Assembly (NCBI GenBank): GCA_028293365.1
Contig: JAQGOX010000518.1
Location: forward strand, 1-26,779
Length of the DNA stretch: 26,779 nt
Reading direction: 5' to 3'
Source of the DNA: Verrucomicrobiales bacterium
GTDB lineage: Bacteria > Verrucomicrobiota > Verrucomicrobiia > Limisphaerales > SXQI01
Positions 1,430 to 26,779 of this stretch are shown in pieces. The translations under genes and the position numbers were made by a program. Within the stretch, counting starts at the first letter, position 1, and each line of letters starts with the position of its first letter. The notes under the pieces were generated by a model. That model did no database searches. It was not told where the DNA came from and saw only the letters and a program-made list of their open reading frames with translations.

Positions 1430-2515
1430 CTAAAAAGTTCCCGCTGCGATGATTGGCTTCGGAACGAAGGGAAGACAGATCTGCAGGAAGGACTGCGGTT
1501 TCTCAATTTCGAGACTGAGCCTGGCCATCAATGCTGAGACTCCTGCGTCGATGATTTGGTCGCACTTCGCGAGATCTTGTTGGCGGAACCGGACATTTTC
1601 GCGCACGAGAGATTCGAGAGTGTCGATATTGTAGAGGTAAACGCCCTCCAGAGAGTGGACGCCAGCATCAATGTTGCGGGGCACAGCAATGTCGATCAGG
1701 AATAACAGCCGGTTCTTGCGCCTGCGCATCAGGTTTTCGACGTCCACGCGATGCAACAATGTATTGGGGCAGCCTGCTGCCGCCACAACAATGTCCACGT
1801 CGGTCATTGTTTGCAGGCATTCTTCGAATCGCACCGCCTCGCCACCAAATTCCCTGGCCAATTCAACGGCCCGTTCGAAGGAGCGATTAGAGACGAGGAT
1901 TGACCGTGCACCATTTTTCGCCAAATGGCGAATACAGGTTTCACCCATTCGGCCAGCGCCAATGATCATGACCTTCTGCTGCGAAAGGTCATCATGGAAA
2001 ATCCTTTCCGCCAACTCGACTGCGACACTGCCAACGGAGGTGGCGCCACGGCCGATGCTGGTTTGAGTGCGGGTTTCCTTCACGGTTTGAAACGCCTTTT
2101 GAAAGACCCGGTTCAGCATTCGGCCGGTCAGGTGAGCCGCCCGAGCCGCTTCATACGCGGTCTTCACTTGCCCGGTAATCTCGGTCTCGCCTACCACCAT
2201 CGAATCAAGGCCGCTGGCGACGCGAAAGAGATGGCGCACCGCTTCAACGTTTTCAATGACGTAACCATGCAGGCGAAGGTCATGCTCACTGCACCCCACT
2301 GCCTTCGAGAGCGAATCCAACGAGCGCGCTTCGTACCGCGTCGCGCCGTATATTTCCACCCGGTTGCACGTGGAGAGCAAAACCACTTCGTCGAGTTCGC
2401 CCTCCACTTGCAAACGGCGAGTTTGCTCGAGGAGCCGTGGGGGTGTGACCGCAAATTGTTCACGCACCTCGACGGGCGCCGTTCGATAGTTCACACCGGC
2501 AACGAAAAGCTTCAT
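1430..2515 (-). CDS. hemA: Glutamyl-tRNA reductase (short form, 361 aa)
   Basis: N-terminal GVNYRTAPVEVRE, catalytic LSTCNRVEIY, SMVVGETEITGQVK, NADPH-binding IIGAGRMG and DIAVPRNID. Start overlaps the upstream stop (ATGA). Confidence 0.95.
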   Translation of the reverse strand: MKLFVAGVNYRTAPVEVREQFAVTPPRLLEQTRRLQVEGELDEVVLLSTCNRVEIYGATRYEARSLDSLSKAVGCSEHDLRLHGYVIENVEAVRHLFRVASGLDSMVVGETEITGQVKTAYEAARAAHLTGRMLNRVFQKAFQTVKETRTQTSIGRGATSVGSVAVELAERIFHDDLSQQKVMIIGAGRMGETCIRHLAKNGARSILVSNRSFERAVELAREFGGEAVRFEECLQTMTDVDIVVAAAGCPNTLLHRVDVENLMRRRKNRLLFLIDIAVPRNIDAGVHSLEGVYLYNIDTLESLVRENVRFRQQDLAKCDQIIDAGVSALMARLSLEIEKPQSFLQICLPFVPKPIIAAGTF

Positions 2516-3216
2516 CGGACCTTCCTGACGTCTAACTGCGCCCGCTCCCTGGGCACTTCGCTTTCCGAATGTCGAAAGTCGGAAATGACCTGTGTGAGAA
2601 CCTGCATCAGAGCCTGATTCCAGCCGTCCATCAACGCGGTCGGCGTGGCCGACTTCAGCGGAACAGAGCGCGCATACTCCCGTTCCAGCAGGACTTTTCC
2701 AGGGAGGGCATTCGGCGCGTCAAAGAACCGAAAGCGCATGGTCAAGACTGCGACAGGACGCTGCGGCTGACGGAAATCGCCGTAGAGCCGGGTTACACTG
2801 ATCTCGGCGAATGTATTTGGTTTGAGGGAGCTGCTGCGTTCGACCACTGCGACGAAACTTGCCTGGTCGCGCAGCCATTCGCGGATCGTAATGAGCAGGC
2901 CCTCGGCGGGAGTGTCCAGGAATGCAGCGTAAGGATCGCGCACGTAAGTATAATCCCCCGTGCGGTACACGAGCGGCCGTCCTTCAAAAGGGGCGGCGAT
3001 TTCCAGGTTTCTAATGCCGAGCACGCGTTCAATTGCTGCGTTTGACGAAGCCATTTGCTCCGGTGCGGTAAAGGCGAATGTTTGTCGATTCAAAGAGGGC
3101 CTGGAAAGACACCCGCTTAGAGTGCAAGCGGAAATGAGAATGGCTGTCGTGATGAAGATTGAGCCGGATGATGAATGTGAAGGATTCATTTTGATCGAGA
3201 ATTTCAGCAGGCTCAT
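2512..3216 (-). CDS. ABC-type transport auxiliary lipoprotein (PqiC/DUF330-like)
   Basis: Lipobox-like TLSGC after a hydrophobic stretch, LVYRTG...DPYA-type segment, and position directly after the mlaD-like gene with an ATGA overlap. Confidence 0.75.
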   Translation of the reverse strand: MSLLKFSIKMNPSHSSSGSIFITTAILISACTLSGCLSRPSLNRQTFAFTAPEQMASSNAAIERVLGIRNLEIAAPFEGRPLVYRTGDYTYVRDPYAAFLDTPAEGLLITIREWLRDQASFVAVVERSSSLKPNTFAEISVTRLYGDFRQPQRPVAVLTMRFRFFDAPNALPGKVLLEREYARSVPLKSATPTALMDGWNQALMQVLTQVISDFRHSESEVPRERAQLDVRKVR

Positions 3217-4184
3217 TTCCTTGCAGTTGGTTGAACTTCCTTCACATGAGAAGGCGGGTTTCCGAAAAGAAAGCCGGAGGGGTATTGTTTCAATTCGAGC
3301 AGCACGTCATCCAGGTCACCCAGGGTTCGGTGAGCGTTACCCAGTGTCTGGTTAAGCGCGTCAAAATTAATGTTCGTCAGACCGGGTTTAATCCCTTCGA
3401 CGGTCTCGCTGAGGTCGCCAAGAAGACCGCCCAGGTCCCGGGCCAGCTTCTCCAACTTCATCCGCTTCACCGTCTCGTCCGCATCTGCGATGAAGGAGTG
3501 GAGTTTGGTGTTGCTGCCCCTCAATTCCGTCAGCAGAGAATTGGCATTCGCGCTAAGAGCCCCGAAGTCTGCCTGTTTCGCCCGGTCGAAAACCTCCCCT
3601 GCCGACTTCAGGCCGCTTTGAAGCAATTGGTTCAAGGCACCGAAATCCAAGCGCTCAACGTTGCGCAGAGATCTCTCGATTGAGGCGAGCAATTCGCCGA
3701 GCAGGCTCGGCGCCGCAGGGATGTAGGTGTGCTTTGGTCTCCAGGGAATCCGCGCCGGAGGGTTTTCGGTTGGATTCAGATATTCTACTGATAGCAGGCT
3801 TGTTCCAGTGATGCCCTGGCTTTTGAGGCGCGCCCGCAGGCCTCGGCTGATCGCTGATTGGAGCATCTCACTACGAGCCGCCCCGGGCGGCAGGGGTGTT
3901 ACGTCGTTTCGCATCTCGAATTCGACAACGACGTAGCTTGGTTGGGTCTCCCGGTATTCGTTCCAGGAGAAGCTTATGTTTCGGACTTTCCCGACGCGCA
4001 CACCGCGGAGTTCAACGGGAGCGCCGACCGCAAGTCCGGTCACATCGCCAGCCACGTAGGTTTCAAACACACTTGTGCGCACAAAATAGCTGCGTGCACC
4101 AAAGGCAAGAATTCCGGCTACCAGCAGCGCCAGGCCGCCGAGAGTGAACAACCCGAGTTTGAGATTGTTGGTCAGCTTGTTCAT
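3213..4184 (-). CDS. MCE/MlaD family substrate-binding protein with helical C-terminal extension
   Basis: N-terminal TM (KLGLFTLGGLALLVAGIL), MCE motif VTGLAVGAPVELRGVRVGKV, LKSQGITG, and C-terminal LKQYPSGFLFG. Confidence 0.9.
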   Translation of the reverse strand: MNKLTNNLKLGLFTLGGLALLVAGILAFGARSYFVRTSVFETYVAGDVTGLAVGAPVELRGVRVGKVRNISFSWNEYRETQPSYVVVEFEMRNDVTPLPPGAARSEMLQSAISRGLRARLKSQGITGTSLLSVEYLNPTENPPARIPWRPKHTYIPAAPSLLGELLASIERSLRNVERLDFGALNQLLQSGLKSAGEVFDRAKQADFGALSANANSLLTELRGSNTKLHSFIADADETVKRMKLEKLARDLGGLLGDLSETVEGIKPGLTNINFDALNQTLGNAHRTLGDLDDVLLELKQYPSGFLFGNPPSHVKEVQPTARK

Positions 4185-4972
4185 TCAGCTTGAGGGTGGT
4201 GTTCGGACTCGGCCGATTCCGGTTCCCGGTTGAAGAACTGACGCACCCACGGATCACGGGAGCTTTCGCGAAGCTCGGCTGGCCTGCCTTCCGCGATGAT
4301 TGATCGAGTTCGGCCGTCGAGCATGATCACCCGGTCGGCAATGGCGTAGATGCTTGCCAGTTCGTGGGTGACGATCACGAAAGTAATGCCGAAATGATGC
4401 GCCAACTCTTTGATCAGCAGGTCCAAACCAGCTGAGGTTACAGGATCAAGTCCAGCCGAAGGTTCATCAAGGAACAAGATGCGCGGGTCGAGCGCCATGG
4501 CCCGCGCGATGGCTGCTCTCTTCTGCATCCCGCCGCTCAATTCTGAGGGCAGCTTCTGCGCCGCGGCATCCAGGCCGACCAGCTTCAATTTGGCAAGCGC
4601 CGCCAACTCCTTCACTTCATCAGGCAGACCTGTAAACTCATCAAGCGGCAGCCGGACGTTATCGAGAACGGTCATCGAACCAAACAGAGCGCCGCTTTGA
4701 TACATAACGCCGAACTTGCGCAGCACCAGCAGGCGTTCATCGTCTTTGGCAGCCACAAGATTGATTCCTTCAATCCACACCTCGCCTGCTACGGGCGCGT
4801 ACAGTCCGATCAGGTTCTTCAGCAACGTGCTTTTCCCAGAGCCCGAACCACCCAGAATTACGAACACTTCGCCGCGCCGGACCTGAAAATTAATGTCCTG
4901 CAGGATGACCTTCTCGCCGTAACCGGCTTTCAGATCGCGGACCTGGATGATGGATTCCGGGAGGTTGTTCAT
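4181..4972 (-). CDS. ABC transporter ATP-binding protein, MlaF/Mkl family
   Basis: Walker A GGSGSGKST, YQSGALFGSMTV, signature LSGGMQKR and Walker B ILFLDEP. The true start is ATG 4972, which overlaps the mlaE stop; the track's 5239 start runs inside the upstream gene. Confidence 0.93.
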   Translation of the reverse strand: MNNLPESIIQVRDLKAGYGEKVILQDINFQVRRGEVFVILGGSGSGKSTLLKNLIGLYAPVAGEVWIEGINLVAAKDDERLLVLRKFGVMYQSGALFGSMTVLDNVRLPLDEFTGLPDEVKELAALAKLKLVGLDAAAQKLPSELSGGMQKRAAIARAMALDPRILFLDEPSAGLDPVTSAGLDLLIKELAHHFGITFVIVTHELASIYAIADRVIMLDGRTRSIIAEGRPAELRESSRDPWVRQFFNREPESAESEHHPQAE

Positions 4973-6108
4973 CGTCTCAGGAAAAAGAAGAGGACTGAAA
5001 ACACGGCGTCCGCGATAATGATCAGCAAAATGCTCGTCACCACCGCGCGGGTGGTTGAGACGCCAACGGCGCTCGGCCCTTGGTGCGTTTGCAATCCACG
5101 CATACAACCCACTCCAGAAACGATCGCGCCAAACACCAATCCTTTGACGGTGCCTAATGCGATATCGCTCAGCTGTATGCTCGACGAGAGCTGGTGAAGA
5201 ATCAGAGAGAGCGGAAAGCCCAGGCCGAGGGTGATCCATACGCCCCCGAGAATACCCATAAATGTCGCGTAGAAAGTAAGCAGCGGAGTCAGCAGGATTC
5301 CGGCGGTGATACGTTGCAGAACCAGAAACCGCATCGGATCGAGCCCAAAGGTCTCTAACGCATTCAACTCCTCATTTACTTTCATCGTGCCTAGTTCCGC
5401 CGCAAACGCCGAAGCGGACCGACCAGCGAGCAGGATGGCCGCGAGCAACGGTCCCAGCTCGCGCACCATGACCAGCCCGATCAAGTTTGCCACATAGATT
5501 TGCGCGCCGAACTGTGCCAGCGGCTGGGCCGATTCAAACGCTATGATGAGTCCCACGAGTGTGCTCACCAGCGAGACGATGGGCACCGCGTTGGCCCCAG
5601 CCGATTCAAATACCCGGCGGACCTCCGCCCAGCGCATTCGTTTCCGGTCCAGGAATGTGAGTGGCAGTTTGCCCGTGACACTGCCAAGAAATTCGAGTTG
5701 TTCACGAAAGTCTGTGATTACCTGTCTAACCGTGTTTCCCACTTCTTCAGGCAGGGAGAGGCGCCGGTTACGCAACGGCTGGCGAAACGCTTCGTAGTCG
5801 GCGGGCGTAAATCCGCGAACGAGCTTATCCAACTCTGGCTCCAGTCCGATTACGGAAACTGCCGCCTGCGGCGCCATTCTTCGCAAGTTCAGATAACTGA
5901 GCAAAGCCAGCCCAGCGCTGTCGCAGAAGCGTAAACCGGCGGCCTCCACCTCGAGCTTATTGATCGTCGCAGCGCGCAAGCGTTGCAGATCCTTCCAGCA
6001 ACCCGCGACTGTTTCTGCATCCAGGCGACCACGCAGAATCACCCGGGCGATGCCCTCAGGTGTGATTTGCACCTCAGTTTCCAGTTCGCGTTGCGTGGCG
6101 GTTGTCAT
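4969..6108 (-). CDS. MlaE family ABC permease with N-terminal STAS domain
   Basis: STAS-like LRGRLDAETV...FCDSAGLALL, then MlaE motifs RELGPLLAAILLAGRSASAFAAELGTMKVNEELNAL and AVGVSTTRAVV. Confidence 0.92.
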   Translation of the reverse strand: MTTATQRELETEVQITPEGIARVILRGRLDAETVAGCWKDLQRLRAATINKLEVEAAGLRFCDSAGLALLSYLNLRRMAPQAAVSVIGLEPELDKLVRGFTPADYEAFRQPLRNRRLSLPEEVGNTVRQVITDFREQLEFLGSVTGKLPLTFLDRKRMRWAEVRRVFESAGANAVPIVSLVSTLVGLIIAFESAQPLAQFGAQIYVANLIGLVMVRELGPLLAAILLAGRSASAFAAELGTMKVNEELNALETFGLDPMRFLVLQRITAGILLTPLLTFYATFMGILGGVWITLGLGFPLSLILHQLSSSIQLSDIALGTVKGLVFGAIVSGVGCMRGLQTHQGPSAVGVSTTRAVVTSILLIIIADAVFSVLFFFLRR

Positions 6109-6116: not shown

Positions 6117-6136
6117 TTATCCGAGTTATCCGAGTT
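6117..6136. repeat. Perfect 9-bp tandem duplication (TTATCCGAG)x2 spanning the FUSC stop codon
   Basis: Sequence reads ttatccgag ttatccgag tt. On the minus strand this gives CAA CTC GGA TAA CTC GGA TAA. Confidence 0.85.
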
Positions 6137-8246
6137 GTAACCGGGCCAGCTCGACCACGAGTGGTGTTGCTTCTTGATAGAGCGCCAGACGTCCACGGAT
6201 TTGAGCAGCAAGCGCGGTGTCGCGGACACCATCGATTTGCGTGGCGACGGTCTCTTCAAGGCCTGCGAGCGCGCCCTGCACGTCTGCTAAAGGACGTTCG
6301 GCCCTCCCTGCCAGCCGATCGGACAGGTTATCCAGCATATCGGCCAGGGTTGTTCGAAAGTGCATGGATGCCTCGCGCAAGGGCTCTGGAATTGCATCTG
6401 GCCGCAGGTCAGGACGGTGCTGGATGACTGCCAAAATCTGGAGGAGAAGTTCCTTGATCTTCTCGCTTCCCGCCTCTAGACGGTTGCGAACCTCTGCACC
6501 GGGCTCGAACTTCGAGCTTTCCTGGAGCTCGACGACAACAGCAAAATCCTTATAGGCTTGCAGGCGCAACGTATAGGCTTCGACCAGGCGCGGTGCGGGA
6601 TTAGCTTGATCGTCTGGGAGTCTGGCCAGGTGGGCGAGCAGGTGAAGGATGTCGGCCAATTTCGCGCGTATGGTTTCTAAGGCGCTGACCGGCCAAAGCT
6701 GGCTATTGATGATTCCAAAGACGATCAGACCCAGAGCGATTCCCACAAAACGGTCGCGCACCACTCTGAGCTCAGTGTATGTCCCGTAACTTTGGAGGGC
6801 ACATTTGAAGAAGGCGAGGCCGATTTGAAAGCCGCAGTAAGAAATGCTGGGACTCCCAAAATGGACGTAGGCTGCCAGCGCCGTGACTGCGGCGAACGGA
6901 AACCAAAATCCTCCGAGAGAATCGACATTGGGGAAAATATACATCAGTGCAAACACACCCAGCAGCCCGCCGACAACCGCGCCGGCAAGGCGCATAATCC
7001 CCTTTTGAACACTGGCGCCGATAGTCGAAAGGGAACAAACGACGCAAGTGATGACCGAAGTGTAAATCCCCTGATAGGCAAACATCGTGAAAATCAGGTA
7101 ACAAATGAAGGCGGCTAGCGCCCCTTTGACTGCAAAGTGGATATATTCGGGATTTGTGAAAGCGTCCGGCGCGATCGCGCCGCCCTTTTGGGCCGGAGGC
7201 AGCTCGAGCTCCTCCGGCAGTTTGTCGGCATGATATGCCTGTGGCAGCAATTGAACGACGCGTTCTATTTCGGCAAGCACCGGAAGGGCCTCGCGGTCGG
7301 GACCTCCGCTTCTGTCCTCCGGCGGTAGCGTGGAAAGATTGGGCGCGCGATTTTCCTGCATGGCTGAACGCCAAAGCGCACAGGCATCCGCCACACGCAG
7401 CAACCGCCTTTTTTCGGAGTCGCTCGCGCTGGCCGCCGGACGATTTTCCAAAGCCGCTCCCGCGGTGACGAGCCGATCTATCAAAATGATCTGCGCGGTG
7501 AATTGAAGCCGGCGTTGTTTGAGCAGCGGCTCGACTATACCGGCAAGTTTCAGAAGGCGCAGTTGTTCCGCCGCACCGGTAAAGGCAAACGAGCTGATTG
7601 AGGACTTAGACGTTTGCTTTGTTTCCTCCATCGCTCGGCGTCGGAGCATGCCTTCCACAGCGTGGAGCCGGGCGGCCATACCGTGCACAAGGACCCAATG
7701 TGAAGTCTTCGGATTCAAAAGATATTGAACTGCGAGATTTACACTCAAGCCCAGCACTCCCGCCCACCAAAAGTAGAATGGGTAGCGGTTGAGATATTCA
7801 GGCGAGGAAACTGTATCCGGGGTGATCATTCCCATCGCTAGCGGAAGGCTGATGGCTGTCCCCAATGGCCCCAGTGTGAGGATACGGTTTAGGAAAAGTC
7901 CCAATGTGATGAAAGCCGGCACCGCCAGAACTCGCAGCCATTCCAAATCGATCGCACATAAGTAAAATGCGAGTAAACCAGCGCAACCGATTGTGAAGCC
8001 GATGATGCCAATGACTGTCCCCAGCAAAGTTGCGGTCGTGTCCTCTTTCGAAATAACAAACATGAGGATCATCACGATGAGTGGCTGTTGCAAATGAAAC
8101 GCCATGACCGGAACTGTGCAGATCAGGCATGAAAGCGTGATGCGCAAAGCGGCCTCCCAACGTCCCGGAGTAGGGGCCATCTCGCGCCAAAAGAGTTCCC
8201 AAAACCGGGATGGACTCAACCATGGAATTGGGGGATTGGCGGTCAT
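6126..8246 (-). CDS. FUSC-family inner-membrane efflux component (MdtO-like)
   Basis: 706 aa with two hydrophobic blocks (EMAPTPGRWEAALRI...; YIHFAVKGALAAFICY...GASVQKGIMRLAG...RDRFVGIALG) separated by a soluble region. Follows an MdtN-like gene. Confidence 0.85.
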   Translation of the reverse strand: MTANPPIPWLSPSRFWELFWREMAPTPGRWEAALRITLSCLICTVPVMAFHLQQPLIVMILMFVISKEDTTATLLGTVIGIIGFTIGCAGLLAFYLCAIDLEWLRVLAVPAFITLGLFLNRILTLGPLGTAISLPLAMGMITPDTVSSPEYLNRYPFYFWWAGVLGLSVNLAVQYLLNPKTSHWVLVHGMAARLHAVEGMLRRRAMEETKQTSKSSISSFAFTGAAEQLRLLKLAGIVEPLLKQRRLQFTAQIILIDRLVTAGAALENRPAASASDSEKRRLLRVADACALWRSAMQENRAPNLSTLPPEDRSGGPDREALPVLAEIERVVQLLPQAYHADKLPEELELPPAQKGGAIAPDAFTNPEYIHFAVKGALAAFICYLIFTMFAYQGIYTSVITCVVCSLSTIGASVQKGIMRLAGAVVGGLLGVFALMYIFPNVDSLGGFWFPFAAVTALAAYVHFGSPSISYCGFQIGLAFFKCALQSYGTYTELRVVRDRFVGIALGLIVFGIINSQLWPVSALETIRAKLADILHLLAHLARLPDDQANPAPRLVEAYTLRLQAYKDFAVVVELQESSKFEPGAEVRNRLEAGSEKIKELLLQILAVIQHRPDLRPDAIPEPLREASMHFRTTLADMLDNLSDRLAGRAERPLADVQGALAGLEETVATQIDGVRDTALAAQIRGRLALYQEATPLVVELARLQLG

Positions 8247-8261
8247 CGGCAGTTCAAAATC

Positions 8262-9383
8262 TTAACGTTTTGTTGCAGCAAAGCCGGTGATGGTGACCAC
8301 TGCTGAAGCGCCGACGCGGAAACTGTCGTCGGGATTTTCCACCTGAATTCGTACCGGGAAACGTTGAGCCAGGCGAACCCAGTCCAAATTGCGCGGCACA
8401 CTCGGTAGCCCTATGGCGCTGGTGCCGTCTTCGGGAACCACCGCCCAAGCGAGACCGACGACTTTTCCATTGAACCTTTTTCCACCCTTAAATTGGAGAT
8501 AAACCTCCGCCGGCGCTCCTTCCTCAATATGCATCAATTGCGTTTCACGAAAGTTACCCACGACAAACCACGTGCGGGTGTCCACCAGAGTGAAAACGTC
8601 CACGCCGGCCCGCGCGAATTGACCCAACGAAATGTTAAAATTCACAATCTTCCCGCTGAATGGCGCACGGACACGGCAGTATTCCAGGTTCAATTCCGCT
8701 TCGCCCAATTGCGCCTCCGCCGCCGCGATGTGTCCGTTGATATCGCCTTCCTGACCGATGGCATCCTCGGCCCGCAGGCGCTCGGCTTTTGCCTGACCGA
8801 CCCCAGCGATTGCAGCGATGAGATTTTTTTTGGCTTCCTCGACGGCGTCAGCTGCGATGAGTTGCCTTGTCCGCGCCGCCTCAACCTGGTCCGTCGTTGT
8901 AAAATCCTTGGCCAGCAGAGGTTCCAACCGCTTGAGATGGTCGTCGGAGTTCTTGAAGTCGGCCTCGGCCCGGTGAACTGCCGCTTCCGCCGCCGCGCGT
9001 TGCGCATCGGCCCTGGCGATGGAGGCATCGGCCACTTTGAGCGCCTTCTCTGCACCATCTACCTGTTTGTGCGCCAACACCAACTGGGCTTTTGCAGTAG
9101 CCACCGCGTGCATATAAGGCCGTGGATCAATGACAAACAGCAACTCGCCCTCCTTCACAAACTGGTTATCCTTGACGTGCAACTCAACAATATGCCCGCT
9201 TGCGTGCGGAGCTATGCCGATGAAGTTGGCGCGAATGGTAGCGTCATCGGTCTGAGGCCGGTAATCGTAAGCCCAAAACGCAATGACTGCGACGACAACT
9301 GAAGCAAGTATAATCGCAAAGCTAATACCCCGGCCGATCCTTCTCCGATTGGCCTCTGTTGCAGGAATTGTTTGGTTCGGCAT
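8262..9383 (-). CDS. Membrane fusion / periplasmic adaptor protein (HlyD/EmrA, MdtN-like)
   Basis: N-terminal TM, TDDATIRANFIGIAP, lipoyl half-motifs VKDNQFVKEGELLFVIDPRPY and VRAPFSG, and WVRLAQRFPVRI. Confidence 0.92.
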   Translation of the reverse strand: MPNQTIPATEANRRRIGRGISFAIILASVVVAVIAFWAYDYRPQTDDATIRANFIGIAPHASGHIVELHVKDNQFVKEGELLFVIDPRPYMHAVATAKAQLVLAHKQVDGAEKALKVADASIARADAQRAAAEAAVHRAEADFKNSDDHLKRLEPLLAKDFTTTDQVEAARTRQLIAADAVEEAKKNLIAAIAGVGQAKAERLRAEDAIGQEGDINGHIAAAEAQLGEAELNLEYCRVRAPFSGKIVNFNISLGQFARAGVDVFTLVDTRTWFVVGNFRETQLMHIEEGAPAEVYLQFKGGKRFNGKVVGLAWAVVPEDGTSAIGLPSVPRNLDWVRLAQRFPVRIQVENPDDSFRVGASAVVTITGFAATKR

Positions 9384-9387
9384 AATG

Positions 9388-9702
9388 TTAACTCCTGAAG
9401 AAGAGCAGCCAGCAAGACAGCGTCACCAGCCCCCATAAGCACAGGTAAACCAGGGGACGCGGCACTAAATGGGACTCGACATTCGTCTTGATGAAGACTT
9501 GTCGAAACACCAGTGCGCTCAAGAGGCCCAATCCCATGCAGAGCATCCAGCCAGGAAAGAACGAGCCCAATAGGTTGATTGAGGGCGCACCACGGCAACC
9601 GCTGAGAAACAAAGAGGTAAGGACAGTGAATGCGGCGTGGCAGTGGTCAAGCCGACCCGCGCTTCCGGCTGTCGGGACCGCCTGAAGTGACTCCAAACGC
9701 AT
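9388..9702 (-). CDS. YtcA-family small lipoprotein
   Basis: LFLSGC lipobox followed by RGAPSINLLGSFFPGWMLC...LVYLCLWGLVTLSCWLLFF, directly upstream of the mdtN-like gene as in ytcA-mdtNOP. ATG 9702 is preferred; the frame is open back to GTG 9867, so the start is uncertain. Confidence 0.75.
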   Translation of the reverse strand: MRLESLQAVPTAGSAGRLDHCHAAFTVLTSLFLSGCRGAPSINLLGSFFPGWMLCMGLGLLSALVFRQVFIKTNVESHLVPRPLVYLCLWGLVTLSCWLLFFRS

Positions 9703-9705
9703 CGA

Positions 9706-17879: not shown

Positions 17880-18719
17880 TCATAGCGTGGCAAGAACAGG
17901 AGCGCGGTCACGGCCCGCCACAGCCCCCTTTGGGAATACACCTTCGCGCACGTCGTTTGCATAATTCTGTGCTGCCCTGAGAACCATTTGTCCGAGCTGT
18001 GCGTACTGCTTAACGAACGGCGGCACGAAGGAGTCAAAGAGCCCGAGAGCGTCGTAACTGACCAGCACCTGACCGTTGCAGTGTGGTCCTGCCCCGATCC
18101 CAATGGTGGGAATCTTCAGTCGGGAAGTCACGACCTCCGCAACGGCATCGGGAATCGCCTCGAGCACCAGGGCGAAGGCGCCCGCGTCTTCCAGCGCAAG
18201 CGCATCCAGGATTAATTCCTGAGCTGCTTTGTCGCTCCGGGCCTGTTGCCTCATTCCTCCAAGATAATGAACGTGCTGTGGAGTCAGCCCGACGTGTCCC
18301 ATCACAGGGAGGCCAGCTTCGGTCAGCCTTCGAACGGTGTTCGCCACCGGGCGTCCACCTTCCAGTTTCACGGCGGCAGCTCCCCCTTCCTGAAAGAGTC
18401 TGGCCGCGTTCTGGATGGCTTGCTCCGGCGAAACCTGGTAGCTCAGAAAGGGCAGGTCCGCCACAACAAGCGCGCGATTGGCGCCACGGGTAACCGCGCG
18501 CGTATGATGGATCATTGCCTCCATGGTTATGGGAATGGTCGTGTCCAATCCCAGGATCACATTTCCGAGCGAATCTCCGACGAGCAGCAGATCAACGCCC
18601 GCTCGATCAAACAGCCGCGCCATGGTGGCATCGTAAGCGGTCAACATGACGATTCGCTCACCTCGCTCCTTCATGAGGAGCAGATCAGGCACTCGGATTT
18701 TTCTTGCCGGGGTGTGCAT
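17880..18719 (-). CDS. panB: 3-methyl-2-oxobutanoate hydroxymethyltransferase
   Basis: MLTAYD, LLVGDSLG, VKLEGG, GHVGLTPQ and TIGIGAG. AGGA RBS before ATG 18719. Confidence 0.96.
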   Translation of the reverse strand: MHTPARKIRVPDLLLMKERGERIVMLTAYDATMARLFDRAGVDLLLVGDSLGNVILGLDTTIPITMEAMIHHTRAVTRGANRALVVADLPFLSYQVSPEQAIQNAARLFQEGGAAAVKLEGGRPVANTVRRLTEAGLPVMGHVGLTPQHVHYLGGMRQQARSDKAAQELILDALALEDAGAFALVLEAIPDAVAEVVTSRLKIPTIGIGAGPHCNGQVLVSYDALGLFDSFVPPFVKQYAQLGQMVLRAAQNYANDVREGVFPKGAVAGRDRAPVLATL

Positions 18720-18771: not shown

Positions 18772-18999
18772 TCAGCCTTGGTATTTGAAAGACAACTGCA
18801 CACGCGCGCGGAATGCCTTCACTTTGCCGTTCTCGACCGTCACGTCGGTTTTAATGACTTCGGCAACGCGCAGGTCGCGCAGCGATCGAGCCGCGGTCTC
18901 TACCGCATTCTTCGCGGCTTCTTCCCACGATTTCGTGCTGGTCCCGATTATTTCCGTTACTCTATATACCGAGTCTGTCCCATTAGTTTGTTTTGCCAT
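18772..18999 (-). CDS. Dodecin (flavin/CoA-binding)
   Basis: 75 aa, SVYRVTEIIGTSTKSWEEAAKNAVETAARSLRDLRVAEV...FRARVQLSFKY. A-rich leader with AAGGA RBS. Confidence 0.93.
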   Translation of the reverse strand: MAKQTNGTDSVYRVTEIIGTSTKSWEEAAKNAVETAARSLRDLRVAEVIKTDVTVENGKVKAFRARVQLSFKYQG

Positions 19000-19125: not shown

Positions 19126-21534
19126 TCAGTGGCTCAGGGCCACGGGCATTTCCTTCCTGTCTTTAGTGACCGCCGATGGCTCGGGTTTGGTTTCATTTGC
19201 CGAGGCATGGTGGTTTATGATTAGCCGGGAACCACGCTGGCCTGTCAGGAACGTCCAGACCCACTGGACGAAAACGCTTACCCGAAGATTGGCCGTTGCG
19301 AGAAACTGGATGTGGATCGCTGCCCAGCCGAGCCAGGCGAACAATCCGCTTAAATGAATCTTGCCGCTCTGCATGATCGCAAAGCCCTTGCCAACCACTG
19401 CCATGTTGCCTTTATCGAAATAACGGAATGGCGGCGGCGCCGCTTTCCCCGACAGGCGTTTCGCAAGCAGTCTTCCGGCGTACCGCCCGCCCTGAATCGC
19501 CACCTGGGCCACACCCGGCAGCGGCTTCCCGTCCTGCTGAAGCGACGCCGTATCGCCGACCACAAAAATCTCCGGATGTCCAGGCACAGTGAGATCGGGC
19601 TGCACTTTGACGCGCCCCGCGCGATCGGTTTCCACTCCCAGCCATTTGCCCGCCGGGGATGGAGCCACTCCAGCCGTCCAGATGACTGTCCTGCTCGCGA
19701 TCCTCTCGCCGCCGACGATCACACCCTCGTCGTCAATTTTATCAACGCCGTGGCCCAGGCGCACCTCAACACCCAAGTCCTCCAGGTGTTTCCTGGCTGC
19801 TTCCGAAAGGCCTTCGGCGAATGTGCCCAGCACGCGATTCGCCATGTCCAGGAGAATGATTCGAGCCGAGAGCGGGTCAATCCGTCTGAATTCCGAGTAC
19901 AGCGTGGTCCGCACCATGACGGCCAGCGCGGCGGCCATTTCAACGCCGGTCGGCCCTGCGCCCACCAGAACGAAGGTGAGGAGGTCCCGGTGCCGGCCGG
20001 GGTCCTCTTCAGCCTCCGCTTGTTCGAAGGCTTGGAGGAGGCGATTTCGAATGGCCACGGCATCCGCCAGGCTCTTCAGGCCGGGAGCGAAGCGTTCGAA
20101 TTCATCGTGCCCGAAATAACTATGGCGCTGGCCAGTCGCGAGTACGAGATAGTCGTATGGGATCTGCACTTCCGAACGATCCGCCGAGTTGGCGAGAACA
20201 TAACGCTCCTCTTTGTTGACGCCGGTTACCTCTCCAAGGATTACGGTCGTGTTGCTTTGCTTGCCCAGGATGCCCCTAATCGGAGCACTGATTTGGCCCG
20301 GCGCCAGAACCGATGTCGCCACCTGGTAAAGCAATGGTTGAAAAACGTGGTGATTGGAGCGGTCAATCAAAACCACTTCGGCTGGAGTCAAACGGAGCGC
20401 TTTGGCTGCCGCCAGGCCGCCGAAGCCCCCACCGACGATAACGATACGGGCCACATGATCATTCATAGTTTCTTCTCCTCTCAGTTCGTATAACGGTTGA
20501 TCGTCCAGCCTGAGGCTGACTTTTCCGGCATAACGCCGGGAAATAAAATTGGAATAGGCGAAGGACAATGCGAGGGCGATTGGGAACCAAACGGAAGCCA
20601 GCACCAAAGCGTTGTGGCTGGAAGCGACGGCGTATGCGGTCAGTGAATTCTCCGGAGCAAGGGTTGAATGCAGCATCACCGGGAAGAGAGCTGCGGCTCC
20701 GGTTGCCAGCACGCCCACGATGAGGCCATTCGAACCAACGAACGCGCGCATTTCGCTGCGAGCAGCCAGGCCGGAAACAAGCGTGACGGCTGAGGCGACG
20801 ATGACAAGCACTCCAAGCCAGCAAATGGACTTGTGCACAGCCTCGTGGAACAAGTCTGGACGCACAATCCATGACTCTACCGAGAGCGCGAAGAAGAGCG
20901 GCACGACCGCGACCCAGAGACGCTTCGCGTACCTGGCGGCGCGGTCATGCACGGGGCCTTCTGTCTTCAGCGTGAGGTAAGTCGCGCCGTGTGCTGCCAG
21001 CAGGACGGTTACAAAAATGGCGGCAGATATCGTGTACCAATCGAAAAGCCCCACATTGCCGCGTGTCCTAAAATCCGTGAAGAATGCCATCGAGAAATTC
21101 CCGTTGCCGTCGAGTGGAACGCCCCGTTCGAGATTGCCTGCTGCAACTCCGAAAAGGATCGCCAGCAGGAAATTGGCGAACACGAAAACGAAATCCCAAA
21201 ATCCCTGCCAGAGTCGGTCATTGATGTGCCCCGCAACTTCGAGCGCGACGCCACGCAGAATCAGCCCCCACAGAATCAGCATCAGCGCCAGGTAATATCC
21301 GGCGAACGCCGGGCCCATGAGCTTGGGAAACACCGCGAGCAATGCGCCGCCGAAACCGACCAGCCACACCTCGTGCCATGACCAAAGCGGGCCAATCGCT
21401 GCGACGACCTGGCGCCGCTCCTGTGGTGTTTTGGCGACGAACCAATGGAGCATCCCCGCCCCAAAATTGCGTCCGTCCAGTGCCACGTATGCAATGAGCA
21501 TCAAGCTGACAACGCCGAACCATATCCCAATCAT
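19126..21534 (-). CDS. cydB-ndh: Fusion of cytochrome bd ubiquinol oxidase subunit II (aa 1 to ~349) with type II NADH:quinone oxidoreductase (aa 357-802)
   Basis: The N-terminal part is a multi-TM CydB (LDG..FGAG, IGPLW..HEVWL, LRGVALE). The C-terminal part has GGGFGG, HHVFQPLLYQVAT, VGAGPTGVE, WTAGV, AQVAIQ and FRYFDKG. There is no stop between them. The NDH-2 part has its own GAGGAG and ATG at 20466. Confidence 0.9.
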   Translation of the reverse strand: MIGIWFGVVSLMLIAYVALDGRNFGAGMLHWFVAKTPQERRQVVAAIGPLWSWHEVWLVGFGGALLAVFPKLMGPAFAGYYLALMLILWGLILRGVALEVAGHINDRLWQGFWDFVFVFANFLLAILFGVAAGNLERGVPLDGNGNFSMAFFTDFRTRGNVGLFDWYTISAAIFVTVLLAAHGATYLTLKTEGPVHDRAARYAKRLWVAVVPLFFALSVESWIVRPDLFHEAVHKSICWLGVLVIVASAVTLVSGLAARSEMRAFVGSNGLIVGVLATGAAALFPVMLHSTLAPENSLTAYAVASSHNALVLASVWFPIALALSFAYSNFISRRYAGKVSLRLDDQPLYELRGEETMNDHVARIVIVGGGFGGLAAAKALRLTPAEVVLIDRSNHHVFQPLLYQVATSVLAPGQISAPIRGILGKQSNTTVILGEVTGVNKEERYVLANSADRSEVQIPYDYLVLATGQRHSYFGHDEFERFAPGLKSLADAVAIRNRLLQAFEQAEAEEDPGRHRDLLTFVLVGAGPTGVEMAAALAVMVRTTLYSEFRRIDPLSARIILLDMANRVLGTFAEGLSEAARKHLEDLGVEVRLGHGVDKIDDEGVIVGGERIASRTVIWTAGVAPSPAGKWLGVETDRAGRVKVQPDLTVPGHPEIFVVGDTASLQQDGKPLPGVAQVAIQGGRYAGRLLAKRLSGKAAPPPFRYFDKGNMAVVGKGFAIMQSGKIHLSGLFAWLGWAAIHIQFLATANLRVSVFVQWVWTFLTGQRGSRLIINHHASANETKPEPSAVTKDRKEMPVALSH

Positions 21535-23015
21535 AGCGACGTCTCCTTTAAACTTCCGGCAGCCACACCGTTGTTGGAACGGGAGCCGTTGCCGTTGCTC
21601 GCGACCGATGTAGTCGCCGACGTGAGGAGGCGGTCCGATGCCGCGTCCGAATCAGCGTCCTTACGTCGGCGGCTACGTGTGGCTTCCTTGTCCGGACCGT
21701 GGCCGATCTCCCGGCCGACTAGAAAGAGGAAAAGCAGACCGAGCACAAAATAGAGACCAGTAAAACCAATCAGGGTGAAAATCGTGTTGCCGTTGCTCAC
21801 CACCTGACTATAGCCGTCAGCCGTGTGAAAAAGGCCGTGGATGAGCCATGGCTGCCGTCCCAGTTCGGCGGTCATCCAGCCCAGGGTGTTGGCGATATAG
21901 GGAAACGGTAACGCCAGCATCAGGACCCAGAGGAGCAACCTGCTGGACTCCAGACGGCCGAGCAAATTCTGCAAAGTTGCGAGGCCCATGAGGAAAATGA
22001 AAATCGTCCCCAGCGTGATCATGATATGAAACGAGTAGTACAACAGCTCAATGTTGTCGGGCCATGTTTCCTTCGGATAATCCTCCAGGCCGTGCACGTA
22101 ACTCCCAAAATGGCCGTAGGCAAGGAAACTAAGTGCGCCCGGAACTTCGATAGGATTGTCCAGTCGCCGCGCTGCGACATTGGGTTGGCCGATAACCGCT
22201 ACCCCCGCTTTGGTGCCGCCCTCAAATTTGCCCTCCATGGCGGCGAGCGTGATGGGCTGATGACGGCCTACCATCTTGGCCTGCTGGTCGCCGCTCGGAA
22301 ACGCAACCAGGAGCGACGCAACCAACCCGGCAAATGTCCCGCCACCAAGATAGAGTCGAGCTTGCGTCCGGTGCAGCCCGCGCAAGGCGTAAAAGGCGCC
22401 CACTGCAGCCACCACGAACGAGCCGGTCACCAGCGCCGCCATTTGATTATGGGCGAACTGCACCCAGGCCCATGCATTCAATAAGTAGGCGCTTAGACTG
22501 GCGATGCCAAGCGAGCCGTCGGCTTCGATTCGATAGCCCACCGGATGCTGCATGAATGAATTGGTGACCAGAATGAAGTAGCCGGAAAGCCAACTCCCGA
22601 CTGCGACCGCCAGCGCCGCCAGGAAGTGATATCGCGGCCCGAGCCGTTTCTCGCCCCAGATCAGTGCGCCGACGAAAGCGCTCTCGAGAAAGAACGCGAA
22701 CAACCCTTCCATCGCCAGGGTCTGTCCGATCACACTCCCGGCATACTTGGAGAAACCCGCCCAGTTTGTTCCAAACTGAAACTCCATCGGAATGCCGGTG
22801 ACGACACCCAGGGCGAAATTCAGTCCGAAAATCTTCGCCCAGAACCGAGCGGCTTGATTGTAGCTTTCATCTCCCGTCCTGAGGGCGCGCCATTTCCAGT
22901 AAACCAAAAACCAGGCCAGCCCCATGGTAAGCTGCGGAAAGAGGTAGTGATAGGTTATCGTGAAGCCAAACTGCAACCGGCTCCAAAACGCAGGATTGGA
23001 TAGATTTGAGTTCAT
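21531..23015 (-). CDS. cydA: Cytochrome bd ubiquinol oxidase subunit I (short Q-loop)
   Basis: RLQF...H23 (heme ligand), [36 protein letters not shown] and AELGRQPW. Carries a low-complexity C-terminal tail. Confidence 0.95.
21610..21676. repeat. REP-like palindrome (GTAGCCGCCGACGTGAGGAGGC type) in frame within the cydA 3' end
   Basis: Arms at 21610-21631 and 21655-21676 match 19/22 as an inverted repeat. Encodes [23 protein letters not shown]. Confidence 0.85.
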
Positions 23016-24439
23016 TGTTCCAAAACCCCGCAGCGTGATTGGGAACCTGGAGAGATGGGCAGCAACCCATCGATCGCGGCAAAAGATGTCTCAAAATCCA
23101 GTTCCAATCGGTAGCGCGCCAGGTCCGCCACGCTAATCATCAGCAGACCGTGCTTCTTACAGAATCGGATCAGGTCGGGAACGCGTGCCATCGTCCCATC
23201 GTCGTTGAGGATCTCACAGATTACGCCGACGGGATAAAATCCCGCGAGACTGGCGAGATCAACAGCGGCTTCCGTTTGGCCGCGCCGCTCCAGAACGCCG
23301 CCCTCGCGAGAGCGCAGCGGAAAGACATGACCTGGCCGGGCAAAGTCTTCCGGGCGACTGTTTGTATCAGCGAGGGCCCAAATGGTCTGAGCCCGATCGT
23401 GCGCTGAAATGCCAGTCGTCACATCGGGACCTTTCACATCAGTCGAAATCGTGAACGCCGTGCCGCCTAACGCGGTGTTATCCGGCACCATCGAGCCAAG
23501 CGCCAATTCGTCGAGGCGCTCACCGGCCATGGCCACGCAGATCAATCCTCGTCCATGCATCGCCATGAAATTGATGGCCTCTGGCGTGATCATTTCCGCC
23601 GCCATCGTCAGGTCGCCTTCGTTCTCGCGATCTTCATCGTCAACCACGACGATCATGCGACCCGCCTTAAAGTCGCGAATAGCCTCTTCGATACTTGCAA
23701 ACTGGAACGGATCATGATTTTCGTGACCGCCGGCTTGAGGAGACTCCGATTTCGAAATTTCAAATTTCAAATGAGAGATTTTGGATGGGGCCTCCTCGCG
23801 TCGGCTGCTACTCGATACAAGGGTTAGGGTGTGCCCCATTTTTTCCTTCTTGGTCCGCAAGTAATCCAGGGAGTGTTCGGTAGGCGTGATTTCACAGGAA
23901 ACTTGTTCGACAACGTCAATGCCGGCATCGAGCAAGGCGCGAGTCTTGTTGGGATTATTCGATAAAAGACGAACTCGCGAGACGCCAAGTTGCTGAAGAA
24001 TCGCGGCTGGCAGGCCGAAATCCCGATAATCGGCCCTGAAACCCAGCGCATGATTTGCTTCGACAGTATCAAGGCCGGCGTCCTGTAGCTCGTAAGCGAG
24101 TAGCTTGTCCAGTAAGCCAATGCCGCGACCTTCCTGATATTCGTAGATCAGCAGTCCGCGCCCTGCGGCAGAAATGGCTTGCATAGCGATCTCCAACTGC
24201 TCTCCGCAGTCACAGCGCAAGGACCCGAATATTTCGCCGGTGACGCACTGCGAATGAATTCGCAGCAACGGCGCCTCCTCGGTCACATCGCCCAGAACGA
24301 GCGCCAGCGCGGTTTCAACCCGGCGGTCGCCATTCGAGTTTTCGCGCTCGAACCCGATGGCTCGAAATAAACCCCATTTGGTCGGCATTCGGGTATTGGC
24401 AACTCCTCGCACCGTTCCGTCTTGCGTTCTTGTTTTCAT
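23012..24439 (-). CDS. ribA-ribB: Fusion of GTP cyclohydrolase II (N-terminal) with 3,4-dihydroxy-2-butanone-4-phosphate synthase (C-terminal)
   Basis: RibA motifs [38 protein letters not shown] and KMGH. RibB motifs [29 protein letters not shown] and [16 protein letters not shown] before ATG 24439. Confidence 0.93.
23723..23811. repeat. Degenerate copy of the same REP-like palindrome, forming the RibA-RibB linker
   Basis: Arms at 23723-23747 and 23787-23811 match 17/25 as an inverted repeat. The right arm (revcomp GTAGCAGCCGACGCGAGGAGGC) resembles the cydA copy. The loop contains tandem ATTTC(G/A)A units. Confidence 0.75.
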
Positions 24440-24464
24440 ATTCGTCCTTCGAGCAAGTGCCCGG

Positions 24465-25250
24465 CTAGGCAACCGCCACTGGTTCCTTCATTCTGGAGAA
24501 ATTCGGCGGGCGCTTCTCGAGGAACGCCGCGAACGCTTCCTTGGCTTCCGCGGAGCGCACGTGGACGGAGAATTCCTCGTTCTCGCGCTTTACCGCCTGC
24601 TCAAGTTGCTCGCGCGTTGACTGCTTCATCAGTCGCTTGCAGGCCTGGAGCGCGTGTGGCGCTTTCGCTGCCAGCTTCTGAGCCGTATCGGTCGCGGTCG
24701 CGAGCAAGTTCTGATCCGGCACAACCTGTGTCACCAATCCAAGCTCCGCGGCCCGCCTGGCGTCGAAAAAGTGGCCCGTCAGAATCAACTCAGCCGCACG
24801 GAGGTATCCGATCCGTGCCGGAATCGTGCAGCTCGATCCGAACTCCGGCACCAGGGCGAGATTGACGAACGGTATTTGGAATTTTGCGCTCTCACCCGCG
24901 TACACGAAGTCACAGTGCATTAACATCGTGGTTCCTCCTCCGATTGCGGCGCCATGGACCGCGGTGACGATTGGTTTGTCGAAATCAATCAGCGCCTTGA
25001 TTAAGAGAGCTTGTGGACTTTCACCTGCCCCGGGAGGGTGCTTTACGAAATCTCCTATGTCATTCCCTGCGCAAAACGAATCTCCCGCGCCGTGCCAGAG
25101 TACGACGCGAATCTGATCGTCCTTGGCAGCCGCGTTGAATGCATCGGCCAAAACGATGTACATCGCCGACGTCATCGCGTTTTTCACTGCCGGCCGATTC
25201 AATTGGATCCTCAGGATGTTTCCGGAACGTTCGGTAACAATGTCAGTCAT
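24465..25250 (-). CDS. Crotonase-superfamily protein, enoyl-CoA isomerase-like
   Basis: [34 protein letters not shown] and FLEKRPPNF. Confidence 0.9.
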
Positions 25251-25260: not shown

Positions 25261-26553
25261 CTATGCTTTCACCGCCGGTTGGTTGGGTTTCGATGCGGGT
25301 GCCGGACGCTCGCCTGGCTTTGCCGCCAACGTGGCGGGCTCGGTTATTTTTCCGATCGCGCCGCCCGCCCGCAGTCGCTCAATTGCCTTCGTGTCGAATC
25401 CCAGTTCTTTGAGAACCTCGTCGTTGTGTTCGCCGATTTCCGGCGCGCGTTTCGCGGGCACTTTGCTGACACCATGCACCTGAATCGGACTACTGATCGT
25501 GGAGGTTAGCTTGCCGCCCGCGCCTTCGAGCGGAACCACGATGTCATTCATCCGCAATTGCGGGTCATTAATCACTTCCTCTGGCCCGCGGACGGCCCCA
25601 AACGTGACGTGAACGCTGCTGAAGACCTCGGCCCAATGGGCCATCGGCTGCGCGGCGAAGACTTCATCGAGAACGGCCGTCAGTTGGGGCATGTTCGCCA
25701 CCAGCTTTACTGGATCGGAAAATCGCGGATCTGTTAAGAGATCGGTGCGACCGATGGCTTTCGCGACCGCCGCCAACTTGTCCGGTGTGACGACGAGGAG
25801 GAACCAGGTGTCATCGGCAGCCCGATACACGTTGAACGCGGCATTGGCGGGGTTCTTGCGATCGTGCAGTCCGTAGAATTCCGCCCCGCTCAGGGCGGCT
25901 TGGATTGAAACGCTCGCGGACCAGATACCCTCGGCGAGCAGCGAAGTTGTGACATGCGACCCGTTGCCGGTGCGCTCGCGACGATAGAGCGCGGTGACGA
26001 TCGCGGAATAGAGACCGACAGCTGTCGCGTTGTCACCGCTGCCGGCGACTGGCCAGGTAGGCGGCGCGCCGGCATCTCGAGTCATCGACAGCAACCCGCT
26101 GCGCGCCCAGTACGATGTGATATCGAAGCCTGGCAGCTCAGCATCAGGTCCGTTGTCCCCGAAACCTGTCACATCCGCATAGATCAGGCGCGGATTCCAA
26201 TGCACTACATCCTCGTATTCGAGCTTCAGTCGTTTCCGTGCTGGGTGGGGCGTGTTCACGATGAGCACGTCGGCCCATTTGACGAGTTTTTCGAGAACCT
26301 GCTGAGCGCTGGGCGATTTCAGATCGAGCGCAATGCCGCGCTTGTTGCGGTTGGCCAGGTGCCAGGGATACGCATCCTTCGCCCGCGGCTGCGGCGGAAT
26401 CTGGTGCCCATGTCTCCAGAGGTCGCCGGACGGCGGCTCCACTTTGATCACTTCAGCGCCAAAATCGGACAAGATTACCGCGGCGCTTGGGCCGGCGATA
26501 AAGCTTGCGAGGTCAACGACCTTTAAACCTGAAAAGATATTGTCATTCGTCAT
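25261..26553 (-). CDS. Family III CoA-transferase (CaiB/BaiF/Frc-like)
   Basis: GLKVVDLASFIAGP, FGAEVIKVEPP, NRNKR, NPRLIYADVTGFG and GSGD (catalytic Asp). AAGGAG RBS upstream. Confidence 0.93.
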   Translation of the reverse strand: MTNDNIFSGLKVVDLASFIAGPSAAVILSDFGAEVIKVEPPSGDLWRHGHQIPPQPRAKDAYPWHLANRNKRGIALDLKSPSAQQVLEKLVKWADVLIVNTPHPARKRLKLEYEDVVHWNPRLIYADVTGFGDNGPDAELPGFDITSYWARSGLLSMTRDAGAPPTWPVAGSGDNATAVGLYSAIVTALYRRERTGNGSHVTTSLLAEGIWSASVSIQAALSGAEFYGLHDRKNPANAAFNVYRAADDTWFLLVVTPDKLAAVAKAIGRTDLLTDPRFSDPVKLVANMPQLTAVLDEVFAAQPMAHWAEVFSSVHVTFGAVRGPEEVINDPQLRMNDIVVPLEGAGGKLTSTISSPIQVHGVSKVPAKRAPEIGEHNDEVLKELGFDTKAIERLRAGGAIGKITEPATLAAKPGERPAPASKPNQPAVKA

Positions 26554-26592
26554 AGTATTCTCTCCTTCGTTTGTTTATTTGATTTGCAACCG

Positions 26593-26779
26593 TCAGTGCC
26601 CCTGGAACTTCGCCGCGCGCTTTTCGAGGAACGCCGAAGTGCCTTCCTTCTTGTCCTCGGTGCCGGCGCATAGGCCGAAGAAAGAAGCTTCAAGTGACAA
26701 GCCTTCCGCCTGGCTGGTTTCCAATCCCTTGTTCACCGCTTCGAGCGAGTACTTCACGGCGATCGGCGCGTTGGAGAAA
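26593..26779 (-). CDS. Enoyl-CoA hydratase / crotonase, C-terminal fragment (5' end outside window)
   Basis: Translated by hand: FSNAPIAVKYSLEAVNKGLETSQAEGLSLEASFFGLCAGTEDKKEGTSAFLEKRAAKFQGH*. Confidence 0.88.
   Translation of the reverse strand, partial: FSNAPIAVKYSLEAVNKGLETSQAEGLSLEASFFGLCAGTEDKKEGTSAFLEKRAAKFQGH

Follow-up and report, generated by a model that had tools for sequence, protein, structure and literature searches.

The 26,779-nucleotide contig C213 (JAQGOX010000518.1) of the Verrucomicrobiales assembly GCA_028293365.1, referred to here as the window, carries genes for acyl-CoA metabolism and respiration together with entry-step genes of flavin, pantothenate and haem synthesis. 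On balance, it is read as a version of an accessory cluster, modular and spread horizontally among soil bacteria, in which one sub-lineage gained its own paralogues of committed-step cofactor enzymes. The composition suggests that the cluster tops up cofactors for its own enzymes. Recurrence in other genomes shows that the arrangement is more than chance, and the set represents a gene-cluster family, so far undescribed, that is widespread among soil phyla including Acidobacteriota and Verrucomicrobiota. This cluster and its fusion of CydB to a type-II NADH dehydrogenase (NDH-2) appear to be new; operons with cofactor supply genes are already known. Literature searches found no published description of the cluster, no described system of this composition (as the original prediction had stated) and no published CydB::NDH-2 fusion. 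The overall interpretation of that prediction, a cassette boosting cofactor supply, is supported in part: extra copies, separate clades and recurrence were found, and conservation of the full set was not.

Cofactor genes within an array of their users

Genes were called using NCBIfam and Pfam profile scans and open reading frame (ORF) listings of the window. The source assembly is a metagenome-assembled genome (MAG) of 5.84 Mb in 978 contigs, with 79% completeness and 2.7% contamination. As the window spans its contig from end to end, flanking DNA is unreadable. All convincing genes, from 26779 down to 574, lie on the minus strand, as had been claimed for the genes named originally. The principal features are the following, core genes being members of the recurrent set described below.

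26593-26779, minus strand: C-terminal fragment of a crotonase (enoyl-CoA hydratase, ECH), cut at the contig end (ECH_1 positions 193-250, 25.9 bits)
25261-26553, minus strand: family-III CoA-transferase (CaiB/Frc-like), core gene (PF02515, 329 bits)
24465-25250, minus strand: second crotonase, EchA19-like (PF00378, 184.6 bits)
23012-24472, minus strand: RibA-RibB, one fused ORF in reversed order (TIGR00505 and TIGR00506)
21531-23015, minus strand: CydA, cytochrome bd subunit I (PF01654, 475.7 bits)
19126-21534, minus strand: CydB fused to NDH-2, 802 aa (PF02322 and PF07992)
18772-18999, minus strand: dodecin (PF07311, 86.3 bits vs gathering score 22.5)
17880-18719, minus strand: PanB, ketopantoate hydroxymethyltransferase (TIGR00222, 341.4 vs cut-off 207.55)
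17492-17854, minus strand: PanD, aspartate 1-decarboxylase (TIGR00223, 119.9 vs cut-off 106)
15920-17431, minus strand: acyl-CoA ligase (AMP-binding), core gene (NCBIfam acyl-CoA ligase models, E-values to 1e-133)
1430-2515, minus strand: HemA-2, a second glutamyl-tRNA reductase (TIGR01035, 349.8 vs cut-off 209.55)

The cofactor genes are placed inside the array of user genes: RibAB stands between the second crotonase and CydA, and dodecin, PanB and PanD between NDH-2 and the ligase. RibA, RibB, PanB, PanD and HemA all score over their NCBIfam equivalog cut-offs. Later pathway steps (panC/E, ribD/H/E, hemL/B) had no match among minus-strand ORFs of at least 80 aa in the window, which bears out, for those ORFs, the original statement that only entry steps are present. 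RibA, RibB and NDH-2 had been listed as genes of their own; all three are present, with RibA and RibB in a single ORF and NDH-2 as the C-terminal half of the CydB fusion.

In the RibA-RibB fusion, GTP cyclohydrolase II occupies residues 23-218 (TIGR00505, 224.8; cut-off 205.85) and DHBP synthase (DHBP being 3,4-dihydroxy-2-butanone 4-phosphate) residues 255-459 (TIGR00506, 249.9; cut-off 177.45). Both catalytic domains thus exceed their cut-offs as in conventional RibBA, but the domain order is reversed: the cyclohydrolase and not DHBP synthase is N-terminal, and the score for the bifunctional RibBA model NF006803 stays below its cut-off (532.5 < 569). At least 119 other protein clusters at 65-80% identity contain the reversed fusion. 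In PanD, the processing site G24-S25 is kept, likewise K9, H11 and Y58.

HemA-2 keeps the catalytic Cys (LSTCNRVE) and the GAGxxGE motif of the NADPH-binding domain. Its match ends at position 332 of 416 of TIGR01035, before the C-terminal dimerisation domain (~333-416), and both HemA paralogues of the MAG (361 aa in the window; 350 aa on contig C834, L096 110-1162) end before this domain. The short HemA was considered as a sign of new function, and this was ruled out because the housekeeping copy is equally short. HemA proteins of five Verrucomicrobial genomes, cluster-linked and HemC-linked alike, align to window HemA only to about residue 325-355.

CydB (PF02322) covers residues 4-328 and NDH-2 (PF07992) residues 363-683 of the fusion protein. 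A contig from sequencing run X1 crosses the CydB/NDH-2 junction without gaps, and the fusion is not an assembly error. Among the matches listed, CydB::NDH-2 appeared near full length in 27 protein clusters (74-89% identity), and four further fused clusters were more remote (48-57%). Most close NDH-2 relatives (80-91% identity) are unfused, and their cydAB genes usually lie downstream of the ligase.

Stop and start codons overlap by 4-8 bases from the second crotonase through CydB::NDH-2. Overlaps of 4 bases link the PAS, histidine kinase and response regulator genes, TolC and YtcA, and MlaF, MCE, lipoprotein and HemA genes, the HemA-2 start overlapping the stop of the lipoprotein gene. Other gaps are at most 157 bases, except for 463 bases upstream of tolC. 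The sole strong intergenic terminator-like hairpin on the minus strand (535-562) follows the isochorismatase-family gene, and no intergenic terminator was predicted inside the array before it. Scans of the window for sigma-70 promoters and terminators gave counts at chance level.

Extra copies, separate clades and recurrence across genomes

Conventional counterparts of the cofactor genes were located on other contigs of the same assembly. C177 carries a RibBA of the conventional type (399 aa), with lumazine synthase (RibH) as the next gene, C834 the 350-aa housekeeping HemA followed by HemC, and C551 a solo PanD, 63% identical to window PanD. Since these are housekeeping contexts, the window RibA/RibB, HemA and PanD are additional to the housekeeping genes in the assembly. 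The expected second copies were thereby established for these enzymes; for PanB no housekeeping copy was found. The assembly also contains another NDH-2 (C672, 45% identical to that of the window) and a single copy of CydA (tblastn).

Extra copies were seen independently elsewhere. Four Bryobacterales genomes carry the cluster-type RibA and RibB, a standard RibB with a degenerate RibA half, denoted RibB(A*), and a solo RibA. In genomes G041-G045 (L105, L108-L112; Bryobacterales, Tunturiibacter), the cyclohydrolase half of the standard RibBA has diverged strongly (35-39% vs window RibA), and a separate solo RibA located elsewhere is 55-58% identical to window RibA. Five Verrucomicrobial genomes carry two HemA each, one of which adjoins HemC; the second adjoins NDH-2 in four genomes, three times with TolC downstream. 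These independent genomes settle the extra-copy status despite the doubts about C213 that are discussed below.

Maximum-likelihood trees were calculated by quick IQ-TREE searches with SH-aLRT support only. Cluster and housekeeping copies were split on one branch in each family (support: HemA 99, RibB 98, RibA 90, PanB 100), so that each of the four cluster enzymes forms one separate group, as distinct phylogenies had been proposed. Cluster RibA had a solo acidobacterial RibA as its neighbour in the trees, and cluster RibB the acidobacterial RibB(A*); such a placement fits an independent fusion of neighbouring ribA and ribB genes as the origin of the reversed RibA-RibB. In five Terriglobia loci (L030, L032, L050, L057, L082), a RibB-RibA of standard order lies 3-6 kb upstream of the cluster acyl-CoA dehydrogenase (ACAD), beside UbiA-family genes, and groups with housekeeping copies in the trees.

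Window PanB is 80-82% identical to the cluster PanB of L123 and L124, and 44-50% identical to the single PanB of 17 of 20 relatives (the other three gave weak or partial matches). The C551 PanD nests among family relatives (up to 80% identical). Window PanD falls outside this group; it is 62-72% identical across all 12 relatives with a match, and its highest identities, 70-72%, are with three order- or family-level relatives, with weak support. PanD was found in no other version of the cluster and therefore looks like a recent local recruit.

For the comparison across genomes, the core was defined by clustering all ORFs of the loci from the NDH-2 search, plus further contigs. It consists of ACAD, crotonase, family-III CoA-transferase, crotonase, a beta-propeller protein, a 3-hydroxyacyl/carnitine-type dehydrogenase and the ligase. 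Loci with at least three of these seven genes were regarded as core-bearing (n = 36) and compared with 57 other NDH-2 loci. Most sampled loci also carry NDH-2, but most were themselves retrieved with the window NDH-2 as query. Homologues of the CoA-transferase (60-92% identity) are present in 29 of the 36 core loci, the ligase in 23 and the second crotonase in 18; the 90% cluster of the CoA-transferase has 27 members. ACAD-ECH stands upstream of the CoA-transferase in sibling loci, the position of the cut crotonase in the window. Some loci add CydAB, catalase, ferritin-like, OsmC, thiamine pyrophosphate (TPP) decarboxylase or aldehyde dehydrogenase genes. Accessory genes were distributed as follows.

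Cluster-clade RibA and RibB: 12 of 36 core loci; RibA in 1 and RibB in 2 of 57 other NDH-2 loci
Dodecin: 5 of 36 core loci vs 2 of 57
PanB: 5 of 36 core loci vs 1 of 57
PanD: 1 of 36 core loci (this window) vs 0 of 57
HemA-2: 2 of 36 core loci vs 5 of 57
CydA: 10 of 36 core loci vs 4 of 57
Catalase: 5 of 36 core loci vs 0 of 57

PanB was also found within the cluster on two further contigs, and dodecin homologues of 66-80% identity in L014, L016, L050, L079, L123 and L124. In a reverse test, four long contigs were picked solely for the RibA-RibB fusion, and all four carried it inside the core, followed by PanB in three and accompanied by NDH-2 in two. Gene order varies widely among loci while content persists. 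The set thus recurs in changing order on many soil metagenome contigs and MAGs, as had been anticipated, and its full composition is not conserved. No Pfam family of later riboflavin, pantothenate or haem steps was present in any annotated sibling contig. Cultured carriers of the core are Acidobacteriaceae bacterium KBS 83, in which it is complete, and Tunturiibacter gelidiferens M8UP28.

The distribution across phyla is patchy, the cluster being present in several of them at 70-90% identity. The CydB::NDH-2 search returned 80 species-genome loci with NDH-2 66-90% identical, from MAGs labelled Acidobacteriota, Verrucomicrobiota, Planctomycetota, Gemmatimonadota and others. The NDH-2 tree requires at least 10 changes of phylum label, a number that may be inflated by bin errors, and places the window NDH-2 in a well-supported small group mixing Acidobacteriota, Verrucomicrobiota and Gemmatimonadota. 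In three phyla the gene lies on contigs of 0.9 to 7 Mb. In the 30-40 relatives of this genome that were searched, the window NDH-2 and CoA-transferase had no close homologue; across 150 sampled genomes of the phylum, the best hit reached 52% identity.

Several variants of the cluster were recorded. In L139 (2275-4194), the 3-hydroxyacyl dehydrogenase and the beta-propeller, neighbours in most loci, form one 639-aa protein, a fusion which suggests that both proteins act jointly. Automatic annotation commonly labels the stand-alone propeller family '3-hydroxyacyl-CoA dehydrogenase'. A second partial core, ACAD-ECH-CoA-transferase, lies at the end of contig C860 of the same MAG (genome G000; L098 3-3301; transferase 78% identical), and about 10 kb away (11270-11497) there is a decayed remnant of panB, 76 aa long with 61% identity and two in-frame stops. 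A 235-nt sediment-metagenome contig (run X4, 90-95% alike) joins position 17413 directly to 19086. A close relative accordingly has NDH-2 followed by the ligase without dodecin-panB-panD, and this block comes and goes. Two versions of the cluster have phage-type integrase genes at a distance of a few kb (L123 19319-20362; L138 18102-19544), which fits mobility.

Proposed function, rival explanations and known systems

In the favoured explanation, the core is a cai-operon-like set of acyl-CoA enzymes, joined by NDH-2 in most sampled loci. Cytochrome bd, found in some loci, would complete a non-pumping route from NADH to O2; others add catalase. RibA-RibB would have been recruited to serve flavin supply, PanB (in the window also PanD) to serve that of pantothenate and CoA, and HemA-2 that of haem, with dodecin as a cofactor buffer. 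Under the control of the cluster itself, these paralogues would feed precursors to the downstream housekeeping enzymes of the host. FAD supply would then increase in step with the flavoproteins ACAD and NDH-2, CoA supply with the CoA-thioester enzymes, and haem supply with the bd oxidase and catalase. We infer such co-regulation and flux boosting, as well as a substrate and a trigger; as to the trigger, for which the original prediction had suggested organic acid, low pH or low O2, catalase, ferritin-like and OsmC genes in sibling loci hint at oxidative rather than acid stress.

More tentatively, the cluster may be a plug-and-play island that combines acyl-CoA oxidation, its own NADH-to-O2 outlet, committed-step enzymes for three cofactor classes and a buffer. 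Such an island could possibly be fully active from the moment it enters a new host, across phyla and independently of host cofactor regulation. If the favoured explanation holds, single cases of the lux-rib type would be extended to mobile modules that could carry condition-specific paralogues of flux-controlling enzymes for three cofactors at once. Many 'redundant' copies of ribA/ribB, panB and hemA in soil genomes would then be accounted for, and a design rule for transplanting cofactor-hungry pathways would be gained.

The closest published parallel is the lux-rib operon of Photobacterium (luxCDAB(F)EG-ribEBHA), in which rib genes were recruited into a flavin-consuming operon and are co-transcribed (PMC6279958). 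They are thought to supply part of the FMN of the system, and the number of rib genes is strain-dependent (PMC6279958). In both cases, cofactor-synthesis genes lie within an array of enzymes that use the cofactor. However, lux-rib also includes the late steps ribE and ribH, whereas the cluster is limited to the two entry enzymes of riboflavin synthesis, joined in reversed order, and adds pantothenate and haem entry steps plus dodecin. The user in lux-rib is luciferase; here the users are acyl-CoA and respiratory enzymes, with which co-transcription is predicted.

The caiTABCDE operon of Escherichia coli encodes the ACAD-type CaiA, the family-III CoA-transferase CaiB, the ligase CaiC and the crotonase CaiD, and the core uses the same four enzyme families. 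This likeness is one of architecture only, as the equivalog scores remain under their cut-offs. The CoA-transferase scores 94 bits against the CaiB model (cut-off 413), and every NCBIfam equivalog scores far under its cut-off for this protein; ACAD reaches 134.5 against crotonobetainyl-CoA dehydrogenase (cut-off 540), and the best NCBIfam match of the cluster dehydrogenase is L-carnitine dehydrogenase (305 vs cut-off 414). Unlike cai, the cluster adds the beta-propeller partner, NDH-2, bd oxidase and cofactor genes, and none of the loci examined yielded an equivalent of CaiT or CaiE. An oxalate (Frc/Oxc) reading of the CoA-transferase and TPP enzyme was rejected; the TPP enzyme is closest to indolepyruvate/phenylpyruvate decarboxylase, with scores below cut-off.

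In combination, NDH-2 and bd oxidase give a short, non-pumping route from NADH to O2. A minimal chain from NDH-2 through quinone to cytochrome bd is described for Streptococcus agalactiae (PMC6030563). In contrast to that chain, CydB and NDH-2 form one polypeptide here and the genes lie within an acyl-CoA cluster. The dodecin of Thermus thermophilus is reported to be bifunctional, storing both flavins and coenzyme A (PMC8044443, citing Meissner et al. 2007). The window dodecin belongs to the same Pfam family (PF07311), and like ligand binding is predicted for it; flavin and CoA are also the cofactors whose entry enzymes adjoin it.

Several observations weigh against the favoured explanation. 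A rib gene is missing from the surrounding 10 kb in 24 of the 36 core loci, only this window has PanD, HemA-2 occurs in just the two core loci given above, and the Verrucomicrobial HemA-2 adjoins NDH-2 and efflux genes even without a nearby bd oxidase. Since pantothenate kinase is the main control point of CoA synthesis, additional PanB or PanD would not necessarily increase CoA. No shared regulatory signal emerged among those scanned for: an Rfam scan that covered the window plus 14 loci, both housekeeping and cluster ones, detected no riboswitch (housekeeping loci taken with only ~1.5 kb flank), and 14 matches to the sigma-54 consensus were counted in the window vs 14.2 expected. The sole run labelled RNA (X20) is probably DNA, and its contigs are without direction. 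Neither housekeeping panB nor panC was found in this 79%-complete assembly; at such completeness they may have been missed, and window PanB is a putative second copy in this genome. In five of the relatives, all five that were checked, panC is located elsewhere. Finally, the place of C213 in this MAG is uncertain. The contig is a compositional outlier (GC 0.567 vs 0.528 +/- 0.013; tetranucleotide principal component 1, z = 3), which together with the lack of close homologues in relatives marks it as either acquired or wrongly binned DNA.

The second possibility, that C213 comes from another organism and its 'second copies' are illusory, would account for this composition and for the failure to find cluster NDH-2 and CoA-transferase in the relatives or at more than 52% identity in the phylum sample. 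It is considered very improbable, as extra copies were seen independently on long contigs of other genomes, C860, with typical composition, carries a second partial cluster, and window PanD has 62-72% identity to PanD of family- and order-level relatives (top 70-72% with three). Variable gene content between loci is in keeping with neutral accretion, in which the cofactor genes are passengers on a recombination-prone island with no functional tie to the core. The many core loci without any of these genes, the integrases beside two versions, the relative's contig that lacks dodecin-panB-panD and the decayed panB on C860 also count in its favour. Accretion is nevertheless judged unlikely: despite many rearrangements, the same four gene families keep recurring, each as a single clade, at identities as low as ~63%, all four fusion-picked contigs have RibA-RibB inside the core, and the recruited genes are all committed steps for cofactors used by cluster enzymes.

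About equally unlikely is a role other than supply, with RibA/RibB, PanB and PanD making flavins for export (iron reduction, electron shuttling) or building blocks for a metabolite assembled by the CoA enzymes. Exporters do lie in the same gene array, the beta-propeller, dehydrogenase and PanB often come directly after RibAB, and the core substrate is not assignable from equivalog scores that are all far below cut-off. Yet no tailoring or alternative downstream enzymes were seen for ketopantoate, DHBP or 2,5-diamino-6-ribosylamino-4(3H)-pyrimidinone 5'-phosphate (DARPP), HemA-2 and dodecin do not suit a secretion model, and the enzymes score as equivalogs of housekeeping functions. The paralogues might also, instead of adding flux, be stress-proof isozymes that replace housekeeping entry enzymes repressed, feedback-inhibited or damaged under the inducing stress. 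Their distinct clades and the catalase, ferritin-like and OsmC genes of sibling loci agree with this, but no FMN riboswitch or like element occurred at the housekeeping or cluster loci scanned, so that neither a bypass of feedback nor an escape of cluster copies from riboswitch control finds support, and the explanation is regarded as rather improbable. Topping up of cofactors by the paralogues of the cluster is kept as the favoured explanation.

Neighbouring genes

The remaining minus-strand genes lie downstream of the ligase.

15225-15881, minus strand: alpha/beta-hydrolase, 5'-truncated (Hydrolase_4 profile positions 60-238)
11842-15067, minus strand: PAS protein, HisKA_3-type histidine kinase and NarL-type response regulator
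6126-11378, minus strand: TolC-like, YtcA, MdtN-like adaptor and MdtO/FUSC-like efflux genes (profile scans)
2512-6108, minus strand: Mla-like ABC system with STAS-MlaE permease, MlaF ATPase, MCE protein and auxiliary lipoprotein
574-1332, minus strand: isochorismatase-family hydrolase (profile scans)

The alpha/beta-hydrolase ORF (15225-15833) is probably a remnant. It lacks ~75 N-terminal residues compared with homologues of 309-312 aa in L014 and L131, full-length homologues align (tblastn) only from their residue 73-82, and just 38 bases separate the ligase stop from the start of homology. The same efflux set adjoins NDH-2/HemA-2 in Verrucomicrobial loci and in L123. Beyond the 535-562 hairpin, an ORF with an antibiotic biosynthesis monooxygenase (ABM) domain (3-527, minus strand) is open at the contig end.

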